A DNA stretch of 64,000 nt, taken from the NCBI GenBank assembly GCA_965203055.1, contig OZ241863.1, forward strand, positions 3,168,001 to 3,232,000, read 5' to 3'. The position numbers were made by a program, and so were the translations under genes. Positions 2-12,964 of the stretch are shown here, piece after piece. The notes beneath the pieces were generated by a model, which made no database searches, was not told the DNA's origin, and saw only the letters and a program-made list of their open reading frames with translations. The stretch comes from Spirochaetia bacterium (lineage in GTDB: Bacteria; Spirochaetota; Spirochaetia; SZUA-6; Bin103). Numbering within the stretch: position 1 is the stretch's first letter; every line of letters starts with the position of its first letter.

Positions 2-496
2 CTTGTCCACAGGCGGGAAGTCGAGTCCACCGAGTCCCTGAAGAAGAAATTGAACGGGATCATACCTTCAGATGAAGAATTCCGAGCGGCCTTCGAGATT
101 GCCCGGGTGCCGAGGGCGAGCCTGGCGCGGTACTGCCTCCGGTCGTTGGAGCGGGTGGCGAGCGATGAATCCGAGCCGTGGTACTTGCCCAACGAAGACT
201 CGTCGATCATCAACCTGGAGCACATTCTCCCCAAGAAACAGGAGGGCAACTGGCCGCAGTTCAGCGACGACCACGCGGCGACGTACGTCAATCGCCTCGG
301 CAATCAGGTGTTGCTGCGCGCCAGCGAAAACTCGGCGGTGGGAAACGCCGGATTCGCGGACAAGCGGGTCCTCTATAAGGAGTCGCCATACCGGTTGACG
401 AAGATGATCGCGGAGGAAGCGGACTGGACACCGGAGCAGGTCGTCGCGCGGCAGAAGCGGCTTGCCGGCCTGGCGCTCGCCGCGTGGCCGATCTAG
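2..496 (+). CDS. GmrSD/DUF1524-type HNH nuclease domain protein, C-terminal part (5'-partial)
   Basis: The frame is open from position 2. Motifs LEHILP...NRLGNQVLL...NS..GN..F.DK...Y.ES match the DUF1524 (GmrSD C-terminal) HNH domain. Confidence 0.75.
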   Translation, partial: LVHRREVESTESLKKKLNGIIPSDEEFRAAFEIARVPRASLARYCLRSLERVASDESEPWYLPNEDSSIINLEHILPKKQEGNWPQFSDDHAATYVNRLGNQVLLRASENSAVGNAGFADKRVLYKESPYRLTKMIAEEADWTPEQVVARQKRLAGLALAAWPI

Positions 497-908: not shown

Positions 909-3900
909 ATGAGCACGATAGCTGACATCTTCGATCTACCGGAACGGGTCCACCAGGGGGACTTCGTGCTGCGGCTGGCCGAGGGAGTGGAGCGCGCCGA
1001 GCAGACGCTGCGCGATTACGTGGCGACCCCGCAGCTCGCGCAGTGCTTCGACGCCGCGCTGACGCTGATCGGCAGCGCGGTGGAGCAGGGCACCAGCAAG
1101 GGCGCCTACCTGCACGGCAGCTTCGGCAGCGGCAAGAGCCACTTCATGGCGGTGCTGACGCTGCTGCTGCAGGGCAATCCGCGGGCGCGCTCCATTCCCG
1201 AGCTGGCCGGCGCCGTGACCCGCGCCAACGCCTGGGCCGCGGACCGCCGGTTCCTGGTGGTGCCGTACCACCTGATCGGTGCGGCCAGCATGGAGGCCGC
1301 GCTGCTCGGCCACTATGCCGAACACGTGCGCGCGCTGCACCCGGACGCGCCCACCCCCGGCTTCTACCAGGCCGAACGCGTGTTCGCGGACGCCCGCCGC
1401 CTGCGCGCGAACATGGGCGATGCGGCGTTCTTCAAGGCGTTGAATGACGCGGTGCGGAGCGGTGCGGCGGACGCCGGCGGCGGCTGGGGCGCGCTGGGCA
1501 GCGGCTGGGACACGACCGGCTTCGATACCGCGCTGGCGGCGGCGCCGGGCGACCCCGAACGGGTGCGGCTGACCGGCGACCTGATCGACGCCTTCTTCGG
1601 GGCGATGCGGGCGTCCGGCGGCAGCGGCGGCGAGCGCTTCGCCGACCTGGACGAAGGCTTGGCGGTGATGGCGCAGCACGCGCAGGCGCTCGGCTACGAC
1701 GCCCTGATCCTGTTCCTGGACGAACTGATCCTGTGGCTGGCCAGCCACGCCGCGGACCCGGCCTTCGTCAGCCGCGAAGGGCAGAAGGTCGCCAAGCTGG
1801 TCGAGTCGGGGCGCGCCGACCGGCCGATCCCGATCGTCAGCTTCATCGCCCGGCAGCGCGACCTGCGCGAGCTGGTGGGCGAGCACCTGCCGGGCGCCGA
1901 GCAGCTCGGCTTCGCCGACGTGCTCAACTGGTGGGAAGCGCGGTTCGACCGGATCACCCTGGAAGACCGCAACCTGCCGGCCATCGCCGAGCGCCGCGTG
2001 CTGCGTCCGAAGAACGCCGCGGCGCGCGCCCAGCTCGAAGCGGCCTTCGAGCGGACCGCCCGCGTGCGCGAGGAAGTCCTCAACGTGCTGCTCACCCGCG
2101 CCGGCGACCGCCCCATGTTCCGGCAGCTCTATCCCTTCAGCCCCGCGCTGGTGCAGGCGTTGATCGCCGTGTCGTCGCTGCTGCAGCGCGAGCGCACCGC
2201 GCTCAAGATCATGCTGCAGCTCCTGGTGGAGCAGGGCGGCCGGCTGCAACTCGGCGACGTCATCCCGGTGGGCGACCTGTTCGACGTCGTGGCGCGCGGC
2301 GACGAGCCGTTCACGCAGGCGATGCGGGTGCGCTTCGACGACGCCCTGAACTTGTACCGCACCAAGCTCCGGCCGCTGCTGGAGTCCGAGCAGGGCGTTG
2401 TCGCCGCCGAGGTGGAGGCGGGGACCGCCCCGACGGCCGCCGCGGCGCGGTTCCGTTCCGACGACCGGTTGCTGAAGACGCTGCTGCTGGCGGCCATTGC
2501 CGAAGGGGTGGAAGCGTTGCGGGCGCTCACGCCGGCGCGCCTGGCGGCGCTCAACCACGGCACGGTGCGCTCGCCGATTTCGGGCATGGAGAGTCATGTC
2601 GTGCTGCGCAAGTGCCGGCGGTGGGCGGCGCAGGTGGGCGAGATCAAGGTCGCCGAGGACAGCGCCAATCCGGTCATCTCCTTGCAGATCGTCGGCGTGG
2701 ATACCGAAAGCATCCTGCAGAACGCGGCCGCGCTCGACAACGCCGGCAACCGCATCCGCACGGTGCGCCGGATCATCTGCGAAGCCCTCGGCACCGCGGC
2801 GGGTGAGCTGCACGACCGCCATGAGCTGACGTGGCGCGGCACGCGGCGTACCTGCGAAGTACTGTTCCGCAACGTCCGGGTGATGAAGGCCCCGGATTTG
2901 CGCAACGACCCCGGCTCGTGGCAGGTCGTGATCGACTGGCCGTTCGACGAACCGCAGTACACGCCGCTCGACGACCGCGCGCAGCTCCAGAACTTCCGCC
3001 GAACCGAAGAGCCGGCGGATACTCTGGTCTGGCTGCCGTCGTTCTTCTCCTCCGTTGGGCAGCGCGATCTGGGCCGGCTGGTGCTGCTCGAGGAGGTGCT
3101 CACCGGCAACCGCCTCAACGAATACGGCGCGCACCTGTCGCAGACCGACCGCGAGCAGGCGCGCGCGCTGCTCGCCAATCAACGCAATCAGATGCTGGTG
3201 CGCATCAACGATCACCTGCTCGCCGCCTATGGCATCGGCGACGTCGATAGCGGCGCCATCGATCACAGCCATGAGCTCAGCGAGCATTTCGAGTCCCTGA
3301 ATCCTCGGTGTCAGTTGCGCCCGCCGGTGGCCGGGGCGTTCCGCGGCGCGCTGGAGGAGCTCGTGGGCCAGGCGCTCGCGGCGCAGTATCCCGACCATCC
3401 CAAGTTCGGCGTCGAGGTCAAGCGGCCGGCCTTGCGGCGGGTGCTGGATGTGGTGGAGCGGGCCGTGGCCCACCCGGAGGAGCGGGTCGAGGTGCCGCCC
3501 CCGGTCCGCGAGGAGATGCACGGTATCGCCGTACCGTTGAAGCTTGGCGACATGGGCGAAACGCACTTCAAGCTCAGGCGGCACTGGTTCGACGAGCTGG
3601 ATCTCAAGCGCGCCCGGCACGGCCGCGGACCCATGACCGTTGGTATGGTGCGCGGCTGGATCGAGGCGCCCGAGCGGCGCGGGTTTCCGCGCGACGTCCA
3701 GAACCTGGTGATCGCGGTGTTCGCAGCGCTGGGCGGCTTCGACTTTGTCTACCGCGGCCGGCCGTTGTCCGGGGCCATCGACAAGCTCGACGACGCCTGC
3801 GAGCTGCGGGCGCACGAGCTGCCGTCCGCCGAGGAGTACCAGCGGGCCGTGCAGCGCGCCGGGGAGGTGTTCGACTACGCGACGGTGTCGCGGCTGTCCG

Positions 3901-4577
3901 CCCGTAGCGTGAACGAGTTGGCGCAGGCGGTGCGCGCCGCCGCCGACCGGTGCCGGGCGCCGGTGGACGAGCTGGCGGCGGCTCTCCGGCAGCGGCTGCG
4001 GAGGCGGTCGCTGGCAGTGGCCGACAGCGAGCGCCTGCGCACGGTGGACGCCGCGCTGGCGCTGCTCTCGGCCCTGGAGGGCGCCGGCGACAACGCGGTG
4101 GTGGCGGCGCTGGCGCAGGCCGAGGTGCCCACCAGCGCCGTCGCCATGGGGGCGGTGGTCGCGGGCGCCGGCGGGCTGGTCTCCGCGCTGGCGCCGCACC
4201 GCTGGAAGGTGCTCACCCAGTTGGCGGTCCTGGCCGGGCCGTACCGGGAGCAGGCTGCGGAGATCGATGCGGAACTGAACGACGCCCTGCGCCGCGACGA
4301 GCACGTCACGCCGCTGGCGGCCACCGTGGAGCGGTGCCATGACCGGGCGCTGGGACTCCTCGCCGACGCTGCCGGGGCCGCAACGACTCCCCCGCCGGTG
4401 CCGCCGGTGCCGCCGGTGCCGCCCGTGGCGGCCGCGCGGCGCGGCACCAGCGACGTGGCGGCCGGCGACGTTACCAACGTGCTCGCCGAGATCGAGGCCG
4501 CGATACGGGCGACCGGCGCGACCCGGGTGACGGTCGACTGGAAGGTCTACTCCGACGCGAACGGCGGCGCGGGGTGA
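909..4577 (+). CDS. pglY: BREX type 2 (Pgl) ATPase PglY
   Basis: 1222 aa. N-terminal DFVLRL, Walker A HGSFGSGKSHF, Walker B LILFLDE, YPFSPALV. Overlaps the pglZ start (GTGA). Confidence 0.9.
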   Translation: MSTIADIFDLPERVHQGDFVLRLAEGVERAEQTLRDYVATPQLAQCFDAALTLIGSAVEQGTSKGAYLHGSFGSGKSHFMAVLTLLLQGNPRARSIPELAGAVTRANAWAADRRFLVVPYHLIGAASMEAALLGHYAEHVRALHPDAPTPGFYQAERVFADARRLRANMGDAAFFKALNDAVRSGAADAGGGWGALGSGWDTTGFDTALAAAPGDPERVRLTGDLIDAFFGAMRASGGSGGERFADLDEGLAVMAQHAQALGYDALILFLDELILWLASHAADPAFVSREGQKVAKLVESGRADRPIPIVSFIARQRDLRELVGEHLPGAEQLGFADVLNWWEARFDRITLEDRNLPAIAERRVLRPKNAAARAQLEAAFERTARVREEVLNVLLTRAGDRPMFRQLYPFSPALVQALIAVSSLLQRERTALKIMLQLLVEQGGRLQLGDVIPVGDLFDVVARGDEPFTQAMRVRFDDALNLYRTKLRPLLESEQGVVAAEVEAGTAPTAAAARFRSDDRLLKTLLLAAIAEGVEALRALTPARLAALNHGTVRSPISGMESHVVLRKCRRWAAQVGEIKVAEDSANPVISLQIVGVDTESILQNAAALDNAGNRIRTVRRIICEALGTAAGELHDRHELTWRGTRRTCEVLFRNVRVMKAPDLRNDPGSWQVVIDWPFDEPQYTPLDDRAQLQNFRRTEEPADTLVWLPSFFSSVGQRDLGRLVLLEEVLTGNRLNEYGAHLSQTDREQARALLANQRNQMLVRINDHLLAAYGIGDVDSGAIDHSHELSEHFESLNPRCQLRPPVAGAFRGALEELVGQALAAQYPDHPKFGVEVKRPALRRVLDVVERAVAHPEERVEVPPPVREEMHGIAVPLKLGDMGETHFKLRRHWFDELDLKRARHGRGPMTVGMVRGWIEAPERRGFPRDVQNLVIAVFAALGGFDFVYRGRPLSGAIDKLDDACELRAHELPSAEEYQRAVQRAGEVFDYATVSRLSARSVNELAQAVRAAADRCRAPVDELAAALRQRLRRRSLAVADSERLRTVDAALALLSALEGAGDNAVVAALAQAEVPTSAVAMGAVVAGAGGLVSALAPHRWKVLTQLAVLAGPYREQAAEIDAELNDALRRDEHVTPLAATVERCHDRALGLLADAAGAATTPPPVPPVPPVPPVAAARRGTSDVAAGDVTNVLAEIEAAIRATGATRVTVDWKVYSDANGGAG

Positions 4578-6874
4578 GCCTCACGCCCGAACAACTGATC
4601 CTGCAGGTCAGGCAGCTCTGCGAACGGCGGCCCGACACGCGGGTGATCGGCATCCACGCGCCGCAGTGGCGCGGCGGCGCTTCGATCTCCACCGGCCAGG
4701 CCGCGTTCCGCGTCTCCTGGTGCGAATCGGCGCTGGCGGTGAGCGAGCAGCTTGCCGCGCTGGGCGACGGAGAACGGCTGGTGGTGCTGACGCCGCTCGA
4801 TGAGACCGAGCTGGGCGCCGACGTGCTGGCGCGCCTGGCGCGGCGGCGGTTGATCCACCCCGACCGGTGGCAGATGGTGGCCGACGCCTACGGCGTGGTC
4901 GAGGTCGATCCGCGGCTGCCGATGGAGTCGTGGATGGCCGAGGCGCTGCTCGCGGCGACGCCGTTCCGGCGCACCCTGCCGGCGAAGGTGCTGGATGCCG
5001 GCGCGGCGTGGCGGCAGGTGCTGGGACACGCGCTGGGTCTCGACGACGGCAGTCCCGATGCGGATGCCGTGGTCCGGTGGAGTGCGCGTGAGCAGCCGGA
5101 CGCCGCGGAGCGGTTCGCGGCGCTGCCGGCGCCGCTGGCGGAAGCGGTAGGGCAGCGGCTGGAACAGAGCGCCGGCGGCCTGGGCGCGCCGCTGGCCGCC
5201 GCCATCGCCGCCGGCAATGCCGGGGAGCTGCTGCCGATCGGCCTGGCTTGCGACCTGCTGTTCGGCGGGCCGGCGGAACCGGAGCTCACGCGGGCCGCGG
5301 TGCGACTGGAACCGCTGCTCGCCGGAGCGGGCGTCGAGCCGGCGCGCGGCCGCGAGTGGGCCGCGTGCGCCCGGCGCGCGCTGCGGTCGCTGCCGCCGCC
5401 GCAGCGCCGCGCATGGCTGGAACGCGGCGAACGGTTGCTGGCGCAGCTCAAGGTGGAGGCCTGGGCAGAACGCAGCGCGGTGCTGCCGGCCGGCCTGGCG
5501 GCGCGCCTCGACCGCTTCACCGGCGCCGCCGAGGCGGCGCTGGCCGACGCGGCGGCACTTGGCGCGGCCGAGCGCGCCTTCGACCGCGTGCGCGAGCACG
5601 ACGCCTGGGCCGAGCAGCCGGAGCGCGCCGACCGGCTGGAGATGGCGATGCGGCTGCTGCGCAGCCTCCACCGCCGGGACCGCGCCGCGGAGGCCGGCCC
5701 ATCCACTATCGCCGCCATGATGGAGGATCACGCCGCCGAGGGCGCGTTCGAGGATTGGGCCAGACGCCGGCTCCTGGGCGCGGATGAGCACGCCGGCATC
5801 GCGGCGCTGTATCGGGCGCTCTACCTCGCGGTGCGCGCCCGCCGGGAGCGGCGCAATCGGTCGTTCGCCGCCGGCGTGAGCGCCTGGGCGGCGGAGGAGG
5901 GCGCCGGCGCCGCGGGCGCTGATGTTCTTGCCATCGAGCACTGCCTGGCCCGGACCGTTGCGCCGCTGGCGCAGTCGCGTCCCGTGCTGGTGCTGGTGGT
6001 GGACGCGATGGACGGCGGCATCTTCGAGGAGCTGGGGGAGAGTCTGCGCGCGCTGGGCTGGCGCCGGCAGAGCGGCGCGCCGCGCACGGCGCTGGCGGTG
6101 TTGCCGGCCGTCACGCAGGCGTCGCGCATGACGCTGTTCGCCGGCGCGGTGCGGCAGGGCGGCGGCGCTCAGGAAAAGGCCGCGTTCGCCCGCCATCCCG
6201 AGCTGCTCGCCGCCTCGCAACGCGGCCGCCCGCCGCTGTTGTTCCACAAGGCCGACCTGCTCGACCACGCCGCGATGGGACTGGCGGCGGCGGTGCGCGA
6301 GGCGCTCGGCGACGGGCGCCGGAAGGTAGTCGGAGTAGTCCTCAACGCGGTGGATGACCACTTGGCCAAGTCCGAGCAACTGCAACTGGTCTGGCGCCCG
6401 GACCGCGTGCGGCTCCTGCCCGAGCTGCTGCACGAAGCGCACGCCGCCGGCAGAATAGTGGTGCTGACCTCCGACCACGGCCACGTGCTGGAGGAGGACG
6501 GCGTCAAGCTGCCCGGCGACCTCGAGGGCCGCTGGCGCGCTGCCGGCCGTCCGCCCGCCGACCTCGAAATCGAGCTCGCCGGCGAGCGCGTGCGCGCCGC
6601 CACCGGCCGCGCCGGGATCGTCGTCCCCTGGAGCGAAACCGTGCGCTACACCCAGCGCAAGAACGGCTATCACGGCGGCCTGACCCTGCAGGAAGCGGTC
6701 GTCCCGATCGGCATCTTCACCCCGCCGGGCGAGAACCTCAAAGCCCTGAAGCCGGCGGAATCGCCGTATCCTCCGTGGTGGCGCAGCGCGGCCTCCGAGT
6801 CGGAACCGCCCGCCCAACCGCCGCCCCCCGCCCCGCAACTCGACCTCTTCAATGCCGATGACCCCTCGCGCTGA
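4574..6874 (+). CDS. pglZ: BREX type 2 alkaline-phosphatase-fold protein PglZ (possibly C-terminally shortened)
   Basis: Motifs VLVVDAM, LPAVTQASR, LNAVDD, TSDHGH and GYHGG. Translationally coupled to pglY. Confidence 0.9.
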   Translation: MSLTPEQLILQVRQLCERRPDTRVIGIHAPQWRGGASISTGQAAFRVSWCESALAVSEQLAALGDGERLVVLTPLDETELGADVLARLARRRLIHPDRWQMVADAYGVVEVDPRLPMESWMAEALLAATPFRRTLPAKVLDAGAAWRQVLGHALGLDDGSPDADAVVRWSAREQPDAAERFAALPAPLAEAVGQRLEQSAGGLGAPLAAAIAAGNAGELLPIGLACDLLFGGPAEPELTRAAVRLEPLLAGAGVEPARGREWAACARRALRSLPPPQRRAWLERGERLLAQLKVEAWAERSAVLPAGLAARLDRFTGAAEAALADAAALGAAERAFDRVREHDAWAEQPERADRLEMAMRLLRSLHRRDRAAEAGPSTIAAMMEDHAAEGAFEDWARRRLLGADEHAGIAALYRALYLAVRARRERRNRSFAAGVSAWAAEEGAGAAGADVLAIEHCLARTVAPLAQSRPVLVLVVDAMDGGIFEELGESLRALGWRRQSGAPRTALAVLPAVTQASRMTLFAGAVRQGGGAQEKAAFARHPELLAASQRGRPPLLFHKADLLDHAAMGLAAAVREALGDGRRKVVGVVLNAVDDHLAKSEQLQLVWRPDRVRLLPELLHEAHAAGRIVVLTSDHGHVLEEDGVKLPGDLEGRWRAAGRPPADLEIELAGERVRAATGRAGIVVPWSETVRYTQRKNGYHGGLTLQEAVVPIGIFTPPGENLKALKPAESPYPPWWRSAASESEPPAQPPPPAPQLDLFNADDPSR

Positions 6875-6970
6875 CCCGGCCTCGCGCCGGCTCCACACGA
6901 AGCGCCACCGCCGCCGCCAAGTGCCGTACTGGCCAGACGCCCCCACGCCGCGGTATGATCGCGCAGCATC

Positions 6971-7570
6971 ATGGACGCCGAGCGGTCTGACATTCAGATT
7001 ATCACCATACCGGATTGGGACTTGCACGGCGTCGTGCCGCCGATCCGTCTAGCTGCACCTACGTCGCGCGACCGTTCTCCGTATTCAGTTTCGCTCATCG
7101 ATTTCATACTACGTTTCGGAACGACCGCGGCTCGTCGCGAAATCATATCAGGATTTCTCAACTACCGCGATGCGTTGCGAGGGGTCCGCATTGTCAGAGG
7201 CTATCAATGGATCGACGGCAGCTTCATCGAGGATATTGAGACGATCGAGTACCGCGCTCCACGCGATATTGACATCGTTACTCTTTTTCATCTTCCTGAA
7301 GGGGATACTCAGGAGACTCTATTGGAACGTATGCCTCGGCTATTCCGAGCGGAAGATACGAAGATAGATTATCGTGTAGACGCCCATTACGTACAATTGG
7401 ACACTGACACCCCGGAGTCTCTCGTCGATCAAATTACCTACTGGTATAGCTTATGGTCACATCGAAGGAGTGGCCGATGGAAAGGATACCTGAAGATAGG
7501 TCTCTCTACTGTCGAAGATCATGCTGCCAGAGCTAGTCTTGATGTGATGACACAGGGAGGTGATACTTGA
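6971..7570 (+). CDS. Putative Pol-beta superfamily nucleotidyltransferase (DUF6932-like)
   Basis: WIDGSF...PRDIDIV (GS + DxD) and a later VDA acidic strand. Visibly lower GC than the flanks. Confidence 0.65.
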   Translation: MDAERSDIQIITIPDWDLHGVVPPIRLAAPTSRDRSPYSVSLIDFILRFGTTAARREIISGFLNYRDALRGVRIVRGYQWIDGSFIEDIETIEYRAPRDIDIVTLFHLPEGDTQETLLERMPRLFRAEDTKIDYRVDAHYVQLDTDTPESLVDQITYWYSLWSHRRSGRWKGYLKIGLSTVEDHAARASLDVMTQGGDT

Positions 7571-8490
7571 ACGCGCGCGAATACCATCAGCTTCAGGCGG
7601 AGGTCAGTACACTGCAAAGCATGATTGAGCGACTTCCGTCCCATCACGCAATCGAGCGGCTTAGTCTGGAATCTCGCAAGAGAGAAGTGGAGGGTGAGCT
7701 TTCATCAATGCCGGCACCCGGGCGAACCCCTGCCCGGGTACGCTTGACGTTCCGTGGAAAACCTGTCGCGGTGTCTCACGGGGTTCGTGCTGACTTCGGT
7801 GCGGCGGCCGTCAAGGCATTTTCCCACGTGGTAGCCACCGTCGGGGCCAGTCAACGTACATTACTCCGATCTCGCGGCGTGGTTCCTAATCGAGAAGACT
7901 ATGATCTGCTGATTACCGATACCGCTCTGGGGTCTTTTGGTTTCGAGTTGGAGGAGCACCACAGGGACGAACTCCTTCCGAGTCAGTATTCCGTCGAGGC
8001 CGCTATCGACCAAACTAAGTCGATCCTTGAAGCCACAGTTGGAACTGACGAAGTATTGGCGAACGCTATTTCGGGAACCGATCCTCGAGCGCTTAGCGCC
8101 GTGCGGGCCTTTCTGAAACTGATGGCGGACCAGGAGGCGGTGTGTGCAATCGAATTCAAGGATGATGTTTTCAGGTTCTTGGACGTGGGGCAGATCAGGC
8201 AGAGTGAAAGCCGCCTGAGAGAGGAAAACATCCGCGAAGAGGAGCGGACAATATCAGGGACATTCGCGGGAGTGTTGCCGGTTGCTCGTACGTTTGAGTT
8301 TCGAGACGGTGATACGGGAGAAGTGATTTCGGGCCGCGTGGGCCCTTCCATCGGGGATGCGTCGGCGATAAACGAGCATATCAACAGACCATTGATGATC
8401 CGCGTTCATTCGACGCGAATAGGAGCATCGAAACCCCGTTACGTGCTTGTGGAATACGATCCACCACGGAAAGATGAATCAGCTCACTAA
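7567..8490 (+). CDS. Hypothetical protein, N-terminal helical hairpin and beta-rich (possibly OB-like) C-terminus
   Basis: 307 aa. TTG start with SD AGGGAGGT, 4-bp overlap with the upstream stop, same low-GC composition. Confidence 0.7.
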   Translation: MNAREYHQLQAEVSTLQSMIERLPSHHAIERLSLESRKREVEGELSSMPAPGRTPARVRLTFRGKPVAVSHGVRADFGAAAVKAFSHVVATVGASQRTLLRSRGVVPNREDYDLLITDTALGSFGFELEEHHRDELLPSQYSVEAAIDQTKSILEATVGTDEVLANAISGTDPRALSAVRAFLKLMADQEAVCAIEFKDDVFRFLDVGQIRQSESRLREENIREEERTISGTFAGVLPVARTFEFRDGDTGEVISGRVGPSIGDASAINEHINRPLMIRVHSTRIGASKPRYVLVEYDPPRKDESAH

Positions 8491-8578
8491 TTCACTCGGC
8501 AGATTGACCGGTTTACGAACGAACCCAAGATGGTAAAATGCGTTTTCAGAAGACCGAGAAATGCTTCGGAGGTCCTCG

Positions 8579-9748
8579 GTGCTCGCTCGGATTGACCTTT
8601 GCTACTTCAAGTGCTTCACGATGTTGAAGCTGCCGCTGCGGCCGCTGACGCTGCTTTCCGGCACCAACGCTTCCGGCAAGTCGTCGGTGATCCAGGCGCT
8701 GGCGCTCCTGCATCAGACGATGCGCGAACACGAATGGACTTCGCATTTCATGCTGAACGGGAGCGCTGTTCATCTGGGTACAACCGCAGATGTAGTCGAC
8801 CAGGTTCAAGGGCACCGGGCGTTTGGAATCTCGCTTCAGGAAGCTGATGGGTCGTACGTTGAGTGGGAAGCCGAGGGCGAGCGTACCGACATGGCCATGG
8901 CCGTGAAGCGCGTCCGCGCCGAATTCGCCTCCGGCTACGACTGCGATGCCGATGAATCGGAGCCGCTTCGCTTTCTGCTGCCTCGCAACGCGCTTGAGTC
9001 CAGGAAGGCGATGTTGTTGGCGCACCGCCTGCGTCAACTCACCTACCTTGCCGCCGACAGGATGGGGCCGCGCGAGACCTATCCGTTGGAGGATCCGCGG
9101 CACGAGCCGGTCGTCGGTCCACAGGGACTACACACCGCCAGCGTTCTCCTTAACGGAAGCGAAACGCAGGTGCTGAAGAAGCTGGCCACCGAGAGGGTGG
9201 CGCCAACCTTGCGACGTCAGGTTGAAGCGCGCATGCGGGGGTTCTTTCCCGGCTGCGAATTCGTCGTCGAGAAGGTGCCCAAGACGAACGCCGTGACGTT
9301 GCGATTCCGCACGTCCGGGAGCGTGGAGTTCCATCGTCCCGTCCATGCCGGCTTCGGGTTGATGAGGGTCCTTCCGGTCGTCGTGGCGGCGTTGTCGGCT
9401 GAGGAGGACCACCTGCTGGTGATCGAGACCCCCGAGGTCCATCTCCACCCGGCCGGTCAGGCGCACATGGGAGAATTTCTGGCGGAAGTCGCCGCCGCCG
9501 GCGTGCAGGTCATTCTCGAGACGCATAGCGACCACGTGTTGAACGGCATCCGACGCGCGGTCAAACGGAATGCGCTGTCTCCCGACGCCGCGGCCCTTCA
9601 TTTCTTCCGGCCGCGCGATGAGAAGGATGAGAACGCGGCACAGGTGCAGAGTCCGGTTCTGGACCGCGACGGCAACATCGATAGTTGGCCGGATGGGTTC
9701 TTCGATCAGTTCGACAAGGATATGAACCACTTCGCCGGCTGGAGTTGA
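8579..9748 (+). CDS. ABC-type (AAA_21) ATPase with C-terminal DUF3696
   Basis: GTG 8579 follows GGAGG. Walker A GTNASGKS, Walker B LLVIETPEVHLHP, H-loop ETHSDH, C-terminal DGNIDSWPDGFFDQ. Confidence 0.85.
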   Translation: MLARIDLCYFKCFTMLKLPLRPLTLLSGTNASGKSSVIQALALLHQTMREHEWTSHFMLNGSAVHLGTTADVVDQVQGHRAFGISLQEADGSYVEWEAEGERTDMAMAVKRVRAEFASGYDCDADESEPLRFLLPRNALESRKAMLLAHRLRQLTYLAADRMGPRETYPLEDPRHEPVVGPQGLHTASVLLNGSETQVLKKLATERVAPTLRRQVEARMRGFFPGCEFVVEKVPKTNAVTLRFRTSGSVEFHRPVHAGFGLMRVLPVVVAALSAEEDHLLVIETPEVHLHPAGQAHMGEFLAEVAAAGVQVILETHSDHVLNGIRRAVKRNALSPDAAALHFFRPRDEKDENAAQVQSPVLDRDGNIDSWPDGFFDQFDKDMNHFAGWS

Positions 9749-9749
9749 A

Positions 9750-9884
9750 GTGGACATCCTCGCCAACGATCTGTCGATTCACGGACAGCTCCACGACATA
9801 CGGTCATTTCGACGATGCTTCGGCGCCGGTTGCTCGCGGGCGGGCGGTGAGCGACAGCCAGCGACAGGCGGCAGGGCGGATTGA
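9750..9884 (+). pseudogene. Probable truncated 5' remnant of the gene normally following the DUF3696 ATPase
   Basis: GTG lies 1 nt after the ATPase stop and reads MDILANDLSIHGQLHDIRSFR, then degenerates into GC-rich low-complexity sequence (44 aa). Confidence 0.4.
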
Positions 9885-9919
9885 CGGCGCGGCGCCTGAG
9901 CCGGTAGGGTGGGCGCGGC

Positions 9920-10714
9920 ATGGGGACGTTCGAGGAGGGGTTCGGCGCCGTGGAGGCGGCTGCCGGGCGCACGGCCGCGGAGGCGGCGGCATTGGCGAAG
10001 GCGGCGAAGCAACTCCTCAAGGCCGCTCAGGACGGTAATATCGGCCAGCTCCGGCGCCAGAGCATCCGCCTCACCGAGCTGCTCTCCTCGGTCACCGGCC
10101 ACGTCGAACGGGCCTCCGCCAGTTGGCCGTTCGACGTCGAGGATGAACGCGCCTATCTGGAGCAGCGCTTCGGCGCCGAGCTGCGCGCCGAAGCGGACCG
10201 CATCGGCCTGAACGTCACGCCCCGTGACGAGCGGCTGGTCTGCTCGCCGTCGATCATCCGGGTCAGCCCTGCCGACCGCGCCGTGACGATTGACGGCCGC
10301 AAGCGGAGCGCGATCCGCCCGTCAAAGCTCGCCGCCGACCTGCATGCGATCCAGCAGGCCGGTCCGCGCGGCAATCCGCAGCGCTTCCTGGAGGCGCTGC
10401 ACAAGGCCTACCGCATCCTGGCCCCGGCGCCGGCGGACTCCTTGATCCAAGGCGGGCAGGTGGTCGCCCTGGCCAAGGTCTACGCCCTGCTCACCACCTT
10501 GCCGGGGAGCGGCCGGCAGTACTCCAGGACCGACTTCGCGCGCGACCTCTACGTGCTCGACAGCTCGGCCGTGGACACCACCCGCTCCGGCGGCGCCCGG
10601 GTGAGCTTCCTCCACTCCACCGCCGCGCGCTCCGGCAAGGGAGCGTTTTCGTTCGCCGATCGGGCCGGCAACCTGATCACCTACTCCAGCATCCGGTTTA
10701 CGGAGGTCGGTTGA
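9920..10714 (+). CDS. Hypothetical protein (helical N-terminus, possible winged-helix C-terminus)
   Basis: 264 aa with host-like codon bias. Its stop overlaps the next ATG (TGATG). Confidence 0.75.
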   Translation: MGTFEEGFGAVEAAAGRTAAEAAALAKAAKQLLKAAQDGNIGQLRRQSIRLTELLSSVTGHVERASASWPFDVEDERAYLEQRFGAELRAEADRIGLNVTPRDERLVCSPSIIRVSPADRAVTIDGRKRSAIRPSKLAADLHAIQQAGPRGNPQRFLEALHKAYRILAPAPADSLIQGGQVVALAKVYALLTTLPGSGRQYSRTDFARDLYVLDSSAVDTTRSGGARVSFLHSTAARSGKGAFSFADRAGNLITYSSIRFTEVG

Positions 10715-11670
10715 TGCACGCCGCCGAGTGGCTCGATCACCTCGACCGGGAGTACCTGGCCACGTTCATCGCCGACGGCGGAGCCGCCGTCAAGTTCGTC
10801 GTGACCGGCGCCCAGGGCCGCGCGGACCTGATCCGGCGCCTGGCTCACACCGGTGAGGAGCGCGGCTATCTGGTCCTGACCGCCGACGCCGCCGAACAGC
10901 GGTTCCACATGCCGCAGGACCTGTTCTTCGCCATGGCCGCCCAGGTCGACTGGCGCCGCGCCGCGCGCCGCTTCATCATCCGGCTGGCGCAGGACGAAGG
11001 ATTTTCTGTCGACGGCGTAGACGCCGCTCAGGAAGGGGTGATCCGGTCCATCGCCGACCGCGCCGGGACCGGGATCGACGCCGGGTTTCTGTTCACCAGC
11101 CTGGCGCCGGCGCTGCAGCGCCGCCTGTACTTCGACCGGAACATGTCCAAGGACTTCCGCGTCGCCATGACCCATCTCTGTCTGCATGAGCGCTCCCTCG
11201 ACCAGCCGTATCAGGGGCAGGCGATCATCGACTGGCTGACCGGCAGGAACACCCGCATGTCCAACGTCAAGCAGTATTCCATCTTCACTCCCGTCAACCG
11301 CACCACGGCGCGCCACCTGCTGCGCTCGGCCTTCTACTGGTTCCGCAGCGCCGGCTATACCGGGACGATAGTGCTGCTGGACAACGAACGGGTGACCAGA
11401 CGCCTGCGGCCTGAGGATGGGTCGCGGTACTATACGCGAGCAATGACGATCGACCACTACGAATTGCTCCGCGAGTTCGTCGACGGCGCCGACCGCCTGC
11501 CGGCGACGTTGCTGGTCGTCTGTTCCGGCAGCGACTTCCTGGACCAGGAGGCGGACCGGCAGTCGCGCGGCGTCGGCATCTATCCCGCCTTGCAGACCAG
11601 GATCATCGATGACGTCCGCGACCGCACGCGGCAGAACCCGGCCGCCGCGCTGTGCCGGCTGGCCGGCTGA
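10714..11670 (+). CDS. BrxD/DUF2791-like P-loop protein with degenerate Walker A
   Basis: GGAAVKFVVTG without GKS/T, IDWLTG, Walker B-like GTIVLLDN, YELLREFVD and GVGIYPALQTRI. These resemble BrxD-family motifs. Confidence 0.7.
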   Translation: MHAAEWLDHLDREYLATFIADGGAAVKFVVTGAQGRADLIRRLAHTGEERGYLVLTADAAEQRFHMPQDLFFAMAAQVDWRRAARRFIIRLAQDEGFSVDGVDAAQEGVIRSIADRAGTGIDAGFLFTSLAPALQRRLYFDRNMSKDFRVAMTHLCLHERSLDQPYQGQAIIDWLTGRNTRMSNVKQYSIFTPVNRTTARHLLRSAFYWFRSAGYTGTIVLLDNERVTRRLRPEDGSRYYTRAMTIDHYELLREFVDGADRLPATLLVVCSGSDFLDQEADRQSRGVGIYPALQTRIIDDVRDRTRQNPAAALCRLAG

Positions 11671-11677
11671 GGCCGCG

Positions 11678-12964
11678 ATGCCGGAGAACCTGGACCGACT
11701 GGCCTGCCGCAGGGCGATAGAGGCGCTGCGCAACGGCGTGCCCAACCGGGAGGCGGTGCGCATTCTGGGCAGCACGCAGCCGCACGCCGAACGGCGCTTC
11801 CAGAAGCTCCTGCGGCGGGTGGAGGAGGGGAATGGCGCGGCGGCCGGCCGCGGGCTGCTGATCTCGGGCGACTTCGGCACCGGCAAGTCGCACCTGCTGG
11901 AGCATTTCGAGCACTTGGCCCTGGAGCGAAACTTCGTCTGCAGCCGGGTGGCGGTCAGCAAGGAGACGCCGTTCCATGACTTGGCCAGGATGTTCCGGTC
12001 GGCGGTCGATCACGGCACGGTCCCCGGCGGAAAGGTCGGTCTGATGGTGGACGAAATCGGCCACGGGTTGGACCCGGACTCCGACCGCTACGCGCGCTTC
12101 TTCCGCTGGGCGAACGACGACGACAACGGCCTGCACCGTATCTTTCCGGCCACGCTGATGGTGCACGAACGGTTGGGGGAACAGGACACGCTCAGCGCCA
12201 TCCGCTGGTTCTGGTCGGGCGACAAGATCGCGGTTGGCGAGGTCAAGAAGGGGCTGCGCCAGATCGGGCAACAGCGGTCGTATACCTTCCGCGCGCCGAA
12301 GCTGAAGGAGCTGCCGCCGCAGCGCCTGCGCTTCGTCCTGGAGATGGTCAAGGCGGCCGGTTATCACGGATGGGTCGTGCTGATCGACGAGCTGGAGCTG
12401 GTCGGGAGTTACAGCGTGCTGCAGCGCGCCCGCTCCTACGCCGAACTGACCCGCTGGATGGGCGAGAAGCGCGGCGATTATCCCGGACTGGTGGTCGTGG
12501 CGGCGATCACGGAAGACTTTGCCCAGGCGATCCTGGAGCAGAAGAAGGACCGCGTGAAGGTGCCGGAACGGCTGCGCGCGCGCGGTGACCTCGACACCTT
12601 GCGGTGGGCGGAGGCGGGCATGAAGTGGCTCGACTCGCGCCGCACGGCGCTCCACGAAGTGAAGCCGCAGGAGGTGGAGGCCGCGGTGGAGACGATCCGG
12701 CGCATCTACGGTACGGCGTACGACTGGCCGGCCCCACCGGCCGCCCCAACCCCGCCGGACGCCGCCGGCTATCAGAAGCGGATGCGCTACAAGGTCCGCG
12801 CGGCGATCACCACCTGGGACCTGCAGCGCCTGCATCCCGAGGCCCAGCCCGAGCTGGAGAGCGAGGAATACCATTCCTCCTACGCCGAAGATCCCGACGT
12901 GGCGGCCGAAACCAAAGACAACGACGACGCACCTCCCGCCCCGGCGGACCCTGCCGACTCCTGA
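11678..12964 (+). CDS. BrxD/DUF2791-like P-loop ATPase (intact motifs)
   Basis: N-terminal IEALRNGVP, Walker A GDFGTGKSH, Walker B GWVVLIDELE, acidic tail. Confidence 0.8.
   Translation: MPENLDRLACRRAIEALRNGVPNREAVRILGSTQPHAERRFQKLLRRVEEGNGAAAGRGLLISGDFGTGKSHLLEHFEHLALERNFVCSRVAVSKETPFHDLARMFRSAVDHGTVPGGKVGLMVDEIGHGLDPDSDRYARFFRWANDDDNGLHRIFPATLMVHERLGEQDTLSAIRWFWSGDKIAVGEVKKGLRQIGQQRSYTFRAPKLKELPPQRLRFVLEMVKAAGYHGWVVLIDELELVGSYSVLQRARSYAELTRWMGEKRGDYPGLVVVAAITEDFAQAILEQKKDRVKVPERLRARGDLDTLRWAEAGMKWLDSRRTALHEVKPQEVEAAVETIRRIYGTAYDWPAPPAAPTPPDAAGYQKRMRYKVRAAITTWDLQRLHPEAQPELESEEYHSSYAEDPDVAAETKDNDDAPPAPADPADS

Follow-up and report, generated by a model that had tools for sequence, protein, structure and literature searches.

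A translationally coupled DUF6932 gene pair in a spirochaete BREX island as a candidate mobile accessory anti-phage module

Introduction

AbiE (AbiEi/AbiEii) and MenA/MenT are two-gene modules whose effector is a nucleotidyltransferase of the Pol-beta fold that acts on nucleotides or tRNA, and PrrC and RloC are guards embedded in type I restriction-modification (R-M) operons. Here we describe a gene pair, A and B, that recalls parts of these schemes and that, by profile and structure comparison, matches no validated named system. The pair lies within a bacteriophage exclusion (BREX) island on contig OZ241863.1 of a Spirochaetia bacterium, in a 64-kb stretch of DNA that was analysed as a whole and is called the window below. 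Gene A encodes a predicted minimal Pol-beta-type nucleotidyltransferase and gene B a predicted non-enzymatic partner, and the two form a widespread mobile pair, often found inside restriction and BREX operons, that is probably an accessory anti-phage module.

By profile search, the sole named relative of the pair is PDC-M63AB, an unvalidated phage-defence candidate of PADLOC, which is distant, is recognised through A only, and shares the two-gene layout and a small DUF6932-type first protein. Excerpts of recent reports describe auxiliary effectors embedded in BREX loci, HEPN-MNT modules (MNT, minimal nucleotidyltransferase) among them (excerpts of PMC12839542), and the Menshen system, which is linked to BREX and R-M and consists of a ParB-DUF262 protein (NsnA), an ABC ATPase with DUF3696 (NsnB) and a protein joining an inactive PIN domain to a nuclease (NsnC; excerpts of PMC12065111). 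DUF6575, a domain that becomes relevant to the fold of B, is named in the accessible part of Vassallo et al. 2022 (PMC9519451) as a new domain among 21 validated E. coli PD (phage-defence) systems. A full-text literature search with DUF6932, PDC-M63, DUF6575 and related keywords retrieved no description of this pair.

Results

A and B are conserved together as a translationally coupled unit

Conservation of the pair was assessed in a census anchored on B, which took one genome per species and kept the best 80 of 188 B relatives; two of the 80 loci are cut by contig ends, leaving 78 that can be evaluated. The loci span many bacterial phyla and the archaea Methanothrix and Methanoculleus, in a patchy distribution. 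At 75 of the 78, A immediately precedes B in the same orientation, in one piece at 60, in two pieces (through a frameshift or stop) at 6 and as a remnant at 9; A is absent at the other 3. Of the 73 junctions that include the 3' end of A together with the start of B, 57 show a four-base overlap (ATGA in 53, GTGA in 4), and a GGAG-type motif lies upstream of the overlap in the example junctions inspected. The pairwise distances of A and B correlate across 58 loci (Mantel r 0.73, reached by 0 of 999 permutations), which points to co-inheritance of the two genes and not to contact between their products. B also adjoins A in five of the six plasmid records that make up the A-anchored sample, at 28-40% identity. 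Near-identical copies exist (P0125 at 99% identity, P0005 at 96%), and the best census locus is 62% identical. Adjacency, the retained four-base overlap and the correlated divergence together support A and B as a real unit conserved across phyla; the co-occurrence of both genes, which an earlier note on this DNA had proposed to examine, is thereby confirmed.

Fused A-B proteins were considered as Rosetta-stone evidence and rejected, as they look like frameshift read-throughs of the overlapping genes: P0121 aligns to A up to residue 163, continues through about 32 unrelated residues and then enters B from B's own Met, and P0073 holds the first half of A only. Judged by length, none of the 150 best B-family representatives exceeds 382 aa.

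In the window, the two coupled open reading frames (ORFs) reported in the earlier note are both present (Table 1). Their four-base overlap joins the TTG start of B (7567-7569) to the TGA stop of A (7568-7570), with a GGAGG lying ahead of it within the 3' end of A. The pair also has the low GC that the same note had remarked on: overall GC is 0.51 in A and 0.555 in B against 0.72-0.75 in PglY and PglZ, and at third codon positions (GC3) the values are 0.51 for A and 0.57 for B, the flanking genes standing at 0.89-0.92. Because both measures fall well below those of the flanking genes, the pair is, by composition, clearly a recent foreign arrival. Its insertion within a BREX island likewise holds, the pair being situated between PglZ and two BrxD-like genes. 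Since A and B match none of the BREX models (PglW, PglX, PglY, PglZ, BrxD, BrxHI) and the flanking genes do, the pair is cargo rather than core of the island. Repeats flanking the region around 6600-10200 are short and at chance level, providing no convincing insertion scar, and neither a tRNA gene nor an Rfam family at gathering score is found across the window.

The promoter that had been suggested for the pair stands only in part. The TATGAT hexamer is in place, ending 11 nt 5' of the ATG of A, and belongs to a sigma-70-like site that agrees with the consensus at 9 of 12 positions. The site lies in the 96 nt between PglZ and A, an interval without any other gene. However, a scan of 3.4 kb gives two such sites in all against 1.2 +/- 1.0 in shuffled sequence, so that the match is no better than chance. 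If used, this site would produce a near-leaderless transcript for A, ahead of whose ATG no Shine-Dalgarno sequence is seen.

A carries the motifs of a minimal nucleotidyltransferase

The product of A belongs to Pfam family DUF6932 (PF22014; 2.9e-29, 102.8 bits against a gathering cut-off of 27), with an alignment that spans positions 1-141 of the 142 in the profile, and PF22014 is also found in 101 of 102 A homologues. In addition, A falls into phrog_9194 (1.9e-30) and matches the PADLOC candidate PDC-M63A (PDLC04744; 8.6e-12, 43.3 bits). Enzymes of the Pol-beta nucleotidyltransferase fold carry G(G/S) after strand 1, (D/E)x(D/E) on strand 2 and a third carboxylate on strand 3. In the AlphaFold2 (AF2) model of A (pLDDT 91.4, pTM 0.88), the GS pair sits at the end of strand 77-82, the DxD motif at the start of strand 100-106 and D137 in strand 136-142, which matches this layout. 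The GS and DxD motifs, already noticed at first reading, are invariant in 49 aligned homologues (G83, S84, D99 and D101), and D137, which completes the acid triad, is kept in 91%. The many further invariant polar residues in these 49 sequences include R55, R66, Q79, W80, E87, E90, R95, H164 and K171, and the protein has extra helices at the C-terminus and a conserved, Pro-rich arm at the N-terminus.

The top Foldseek matches of the model in the Protein Data Bank (PDB) are minimal nucleotidyltransferases, namely 2rff, MntA (7bxo, 5yep, 7ae9, 7aer) and HI0073 (1no5). In the protein Atlas, with the family of A excluded, the nearest named clusters are NTP_transf_2/Polbeta (0.80-0.83), which serves as a lead only. 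The structural comparison that the earlier note had recommended thus gave a confident model with nucleotidyltransferases at the top of the list, at scores that are weak and are weighed below. It is the motifs and their conservation, more than the fold scores, that lead us to read A as a nucleotidyltransferase, presumably an active minimal one.

B resembles a non-catalytic binding protein with an OB-like barrel

B found no match in Pfam, PADLOC (E<=10), NCBIfam (which has none for A either) or, with nothing below E ~1, among PDB chains, whether searched with the single sequence or with a profile; it aligns over its whole length with phrog_18731 (1.2e-63). Its relatives number 823 in a word-indexed search, and in an exhaustive search the family comprises 1513 representatives (50% identity level) at E<=1e-3 and 482 at E<=1e-30. 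In 90 diverse members, Gly, Phe, Pro and Ala make up most of the columns conserved at >=90%, which also include R37, S123 and R174. S123 is present in 98% of the 90 and Y292 in 85%, no element is better conserved than the GSFGF hairpin, and no His column reaches 70%. Three R..H strings of the window protein, which could recall a HEPN motif, are not conserved in the family. The statement that this gene lacks a HEPN RxxxxH motif and an effector signature of the cyclic oligonucleotide-based antiphage signalling system (CBASS) is therefore borne out, in the first respect by the missing His column and in the second by the missing PADLOC match. Because the conserved columns are mostly Gly, Phe, Pro and Ala with no His at 70%, B is not HEPN, and it looks less like an enzyme than like a non-catalytic binding or regulatory protein.

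The AF2 model of B (pLDDT 86.3) combines a helical hairpin at the N-terminus, an alpha/beta domain in the middle and an OB-like barrel at the C-terminus (Table 1). The barrel matches IF1, the N-terminal anticodon-binding domains of AspRS and LysRS, RPA and CusF in the PDB (Foldseek prob 0.9-1.0), and may bind nucleic acid, either RNA/tRNA or single-stranded DNA. The whole of B has no good match in the PDB, class I release factors appearing at E 5e-3 but with a TM of 0.16. Among predicted viral structures, the whole model resembles a DUF6575 phage protein over 301 columns (E 6.4e-13, prob 1.0; identity 16%, TM 0.33-0.39) and also matches two other uncharacterised phage proteins, and the Atlas places a DUF6575 cluster near B at 0.88, again a lead only. 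In contrast, Pfam searches of 90 B-family members, B included, gave scattered chance matches at E<=10 and, among the families listed, none to DUF6575 (PF20215). For B, the recommended structural comparison thus yielded local OB-fold matches and the likeness to DUF6575, without a whole-protein match in the PDB.

In four family members (P0316, P0343, P0345 and P0352) the N-terminal hairpin is replaced by 100-145 residues, with weak TPR-like matches in P0316 and P0343; this pattern suggests that the N-terminus of B may be an exchangeable module.

The pair recurs in type I R-M and BREX operons

Neighbours of the census loci were identified by protein clustering followed by Pfam scans of cluster representatives. 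At least one type I R-M gene lies within 8 kb at 30 of the 80 loci (HsdS at 22, HsdM at 16, HsdR at 12, with a further HsdM by Pfam at L026), and the usual order, on one strand, is hsdM-(DUF1016)-hsdS-A-B-hsdR-ygjP. This share of 38% is, by our estimate, far above that of a random gene. The order BrxC-A-B-PglX-PglZ is found in the planctomycete metagenome-assembled genomes Fuerstiella and Gemmata (L030, 3939-14600; L061, 55-9035), and together with the window these make three independent BREX placements, the site at L030 and L061 being different from that of the window. A strong association with defence loci, which the earlier note had proposed to examine, is thus seen in both the type I R-M and the BREX settings. 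Among the other genes next to the pair are GmrSD, an Hma helicase, HKD+Snf2, Mrr, a type IIG enzyme, Fic, HipA, TacA/GNAT and several transposases, and at roughly half of the loci none of the neighbours identified is a restriction or other defence gene. A link to mobile or (pro)phage DNA is indicated by the PHROG membership of both genes and by a Pseudomonas copy surrounded by Arc/HTH regulators, with an integrase 1.4 kb away.

Type I R-M operons that hold the pair collect several riders. One such operon that holds B without A (L001) contains a PDC-M68A-like protein (5106-5879; 3.6e-85) that resembles SAVED-HNH and Shedu-type endonuclease effectors, and in L005, L019, L027, L039 and L058 a DUF1016 (PDC-S02-type) gene and a RecG C-terminal-like HATPase_c_4 gene recur.

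Comparison with named systems

PDC-M63A is matched not only by A but also by all eight other A-type or fused family members scanned (E 1.3e-14 to 0.056). B has the size of PDC-M63B (307 aa against a profile of 306 positions) but does not match it even at E<=10, and among seven other stand-alone B-family proteins P0343 alone does so, marginally (E 0.036). Lacking a PDC-M63B match, this locus would not be called by PADLOC. The earlier description of the pair as an uncharacterised nucleotidyltransferase-plus-partner module therefore stands with respect to the unit, the acid triad and the restriction/BREX link, and needs qualification in that A has a named counterpart in PDC-M63A.

MntA-HepT shares with the pair a minimal nucleotidyltransferase encoded first and an overlapping partner second, and its MntA structures are among the top fold matches of A. 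However, A is larger (199 aa) and has the Pro-rich arm and extra C-terminal helices, B survives without A, and B has an alpha/beta plus OB fold rather than a helical bundle and no Rx4-6H motif. With no HEPN match in Pfam or PADLOC, no conserved His and a different fold, membership of B in HEPN is rejected. The scheme of AbiE and MenAT, in which the nucleotidyltransferase is the effector, is by analogy our favoured working model for A, although A matches DUF1814/AbiEii in neither sequence nor fold, the two genes stand in the opposite order (enzyme first here) and B lacks an AbiEi-type winged helix. Membership in AbiE/MenAT is likewise rejected: A matches DUF6932 and PDC-M63A only, no gene lies between PglZ and A that could supply the missing partner, and B belongs to no matching family. 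PrrC and RloC share the habit of lying on the same strand inside hsd operons, here typically as hsdS-A-B-hsdR, but A and B are unrelated to them and have neither ATPase nor anticodon-nuclease domains.

Membership in CBASS is rejected too: neither protein has a cyclase or effector match in PADLOC, and the fold matches of A to CdnC and CdnD have a probability of 0.2. Menshen is rejected as well, since A and B have no DUF262 or Nsn match; the next gene alone is NsnB-like (Table 1), and no such gene recurs beside the pair in the 80 census loci.

Proposed roles of A and B and competing explanations

Our leading model, which we put at somewhat short of an even chance, is a mobile coupled module in which A would be the catalytic effector and B a non-catalytic, nucleic-acid-binding regulator or targeting subunit, acting in accessory defence or in a manner akin to toxin-antitoxin (TA) systems. 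A and B would move between genomes as one horizontally mobile, translationally coupled unit, which would lodge preferentially in prophage-like elements and in operons of the restriction type, either BREX or type I R-M (there between hsdS and hsdR). A would act as an active minimal Pol-beta-type nucleotidyltransferase, and B, through contact with A, would regulate it or direct it to its target by means of the OB-like barrel. Once the first line of defence is breached, the presumed trigger, A would nucleotidylate a conserved host or phage nucleic-acid target, and the module would serve as a second-line layer of abortive-infection or TA-like defence.

The loci in which one gene stands without the other bear most directly on this division of roles. 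B is full-length at all 12 of the 78 loci that lack A (3) or keep only a remnant of it (9); these 12 loci represent at least 8 separate lineages, the ratio of nonsynonymous to synonymous substitution rates (dN/dS) to the nearest paired relative is 0.05-0.22, and eight of the nine remnants keep just the 3' end of A, which carries the ribosome-binding site of B. Full-length B without intact A implies that unmodified B is tolerated, which speaks against a scheme in which A neutralises a toxic B.

Several observations weigh against the leading model. At one A-anchored locus (L082) an insertion sequence (IS)-like ORF takes the place of B behind an A that seems intact, so that A alone can also persist, which fits poorly with A as an unrestrained toxin. 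Neither gene, then, looks acutely lethal alone, which would leave either an enzyme with a regulator or antitoxin, able to leave orphans, or a two-subunit enzyme that needs both subunits and a trigger. MntA-HepT has the same enzyme-first, overlapping order, and there the nucleotidyltransferase is the antitoxin. The Foldseek matches of A are weak (E 4e-3 to 5e-2, TM 0.23-0.47, none at E<=0.001; target-normalised TM of its nucleotidyltransferase matches 0.31-0.47), and phmmer and profile searches of A against PDB chains gave nothing below E ~1 and no solved nucleotidyltransferase. For a protein that senses phage, the identity seen across phyla (50-60%) is unusually high. Many of the closest neighbours have housekeeping roles (among them penicillin amidase, alpha-amylase, adenylosuccinate lyase and glycosyltransferases), which makes the module independent of restriction or BREX. 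The census, being anchored on B with the best-scoring loci kept, is biased towards intact B. Lastly, in the one bench test found, PDC-M63AB showed no detectable defence in E. coli NILS69 according to the accessible portion of PMC12409345.

Some of these points would equally suit a role outside immunity, to which we assign a minor but appreciable probability: the pair could be a selfish cassette for addiction or stabilisation that is carried along in mobile DNA, or two proteins that process nucleic acid in repair or tailing. The housekeeping neighbours at many loci are compatible with it, high cross-phylum conservation with low dN/dS would suit a cellular target that is itself conserved, neither A nor B had a tblastn match in 50,697 phage records, and the negative phenotype of PDC-M63AB (excerpts of PMC12409345) points the same way. 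On the other hand, 30 of 80 loci lie in or beside type I R-M operons and three, the window included, in BREX, and the foreign GC3, the patchy bacterial and archaeal spread and the PHROG families are typical of defence or mobile cargo and untypical of housekeeping genes.

We regard as improbable a type VII TA system of the MntA-HepT kind, in which A would be the antitoxin and would nucleotidylate the toxin B (for example at S123 or Y292), and in which loss or inhibition of A would allow B to arrest growth through nucleic acid bound by its OB barrel. The MNT antitoxins among the best fold matches of A, the overlapping order of enzyme first and partner second, the near-invariant hydroxyl of S123 with the frequent Y292, and the HEPN-MNT modules described as BREX auxiliary effectors (excerpts of PMC12839542) are all consistent with such a system. 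However, an intact B occurs without catalytic A at 12 of 78 loci, where a toxic unmodified B should kill the cell, B carries neither a HEPN motif nor conserved catalytic residues, and a toxic activity is not readable from its fold.

Somewhat less probable again is that the pair guards modification-based immunity as a two-subunit tRNA/RNA nucleotidyltransferase, with the OB fold of B as the target-recognition element. The N-terminal hairpin of B would latch A to restriction or BREX complexes, a phage that disables restriction would release the holoenzyme, and translation would be shut down. A tRNA or RNA target would be in keeping with the weak whole-length likeness of B to class I release factors and with the local likeness of its barrel to IF1 and to the anticodon-binding domains of aminoacyl-tRNA synthetases. 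Such a guard would work in the same way as PrrC, with entirely different proteins, found in bacteria and archaea.

A signalling pair, in which A would make a nucleotide or oligonucleotide signal on infection and B would be a receptor-effector that binds the signal by its GSFGF hairpin and acts on nucleic acid by its OB barrel, appears distinctly improbable. The Pol-beta fold does include signal makers, CdnC and CdnD appear in the Foldseek list of A, and the GSFGF hairpin, which we take to resemble nucleotide-binding glycine loops, is the most conserved element of B. Yet the low probability of the CdnC and CdnD matches, the size of A, far below that of a cGAS/DncV-like nucleotidyltransferase (CD-NTase), the lack of a PADLOC cyclase or effector match for either protein, the absence from B of a recognisable effector domain (nuclease, pore, TIR, Sir2) and the persistence of B without A at 12 loci all count against it. 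The weakest explanation, that a low-GC spacer here holds nothing but chance ORFs or pseudogenes in decay, has the unusual TTG start of B as its sole point in favour and is ruled out by 823 (B) and 102 (A) matches, hundreds of them full-length, by the 1513 family representatives, by two confident structure models, by dN/dS far under 1 and by the conservation of the start position of B and of the coupling among relatives.

Should the leading model be correct and the pair be a working defence or abortive-infection module, it would represent a new, widespread, cross-domain family of nucleotidyltransferase-based immunity, present in bacteria and methanogenic archaea, with a partner protein from no described family, and would assign a role to DUF6932 and to two uncharacterised PHROG families. 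Its placement between hsdS and hsdR or within a BREX core would then offer a tractable case for studying how a restriction-type first line is connected to second-line effectors. If the pair is inert, as PDC-M63AB is in one host, it would be a caution against assigning a defence function from island context alone.

Other features of the window

The genes surrounding the pair are listed with their coordinates in Table 1.

Table 1. Coordinates of the gene pair, its motifs and domains, and the neighbouring features of the window.
Feature	Position	Strand	Details
GmrSD/Orf5/HEC-06-type type IV restriction protein, C-terminal end	2-496	+	PADLOC Orf5 7.7e-47; just upstream of PglY
BrxC/PglY	909-4577		PADLOC 1472.9 bits
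PglZ	4574-6874		PADLOC 8.5e-206
Promoter-like site	6930-6959	+	TGGCCA, 18 nt spacer, TATGAT (6954-6959)
Gene A	6971-7570	+	199 aa, ATG start; DUF6932, predicted minimal Pol-beta-type nucleotidyltransferase
A, G83-S84	7217-7222		GS motif
A, D99-x-D101	7265-7273		DxD motif
A, D137	7379-7381		third acidic residue
Translational-coupling junction	7556-7570	+	GGAGG (7556-7560) in the 3' end of A, then TTGA
Gene B	7567-8490	+	307 aa, TTG start; predicted non-enzymatic partner
B, N-terminal helical hairpin			residues 3-47
B, middle alpha/beta domain	7930-7944 (GSFGF hairpin)		GSFGF hairpin, residues 122-126
B, C-terminal five-strand OB-like barrel	8230-8460		residues 222-298
Promoter-like site of the NsnB-type gene	8512-8539		TTTACG, 16 nt spacer, TAAAAT with TG
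ABC ATPase, PADLOC NsnB type	8561-9748	+	3.2e-100; Pfam AAA_15, AAA_21, DUF3696; GC3 0.77
264-aa protein	9920-10714		no family match; GC3 0.90
BrxD-like gene 1	10711-11670	+	PADLOC 1.4e-10
BrxD-like gene 2	11609-12964	+	PADLOC 2.2e-17

Downstream of the pair, the NsnB-type ATPase gene has a promoter-like site of its own. No ParB-DUF262 NsnA is present near it, and the 264-aa protein that follows might be an NsnC-like partner. With its intermediate GC3, the ATPase gene looks like a separate, older insertion in the same BREX gap. Among the window ORFs scanned up to 22 kb, there is no PglX, PglW or BrxHI. The tandem BrxD-like genes overlap by 62 bases and each separately matches the BrxC_BrxD profile; read as one frame they meet three stops, and they represent either a duplication or a broken gene.

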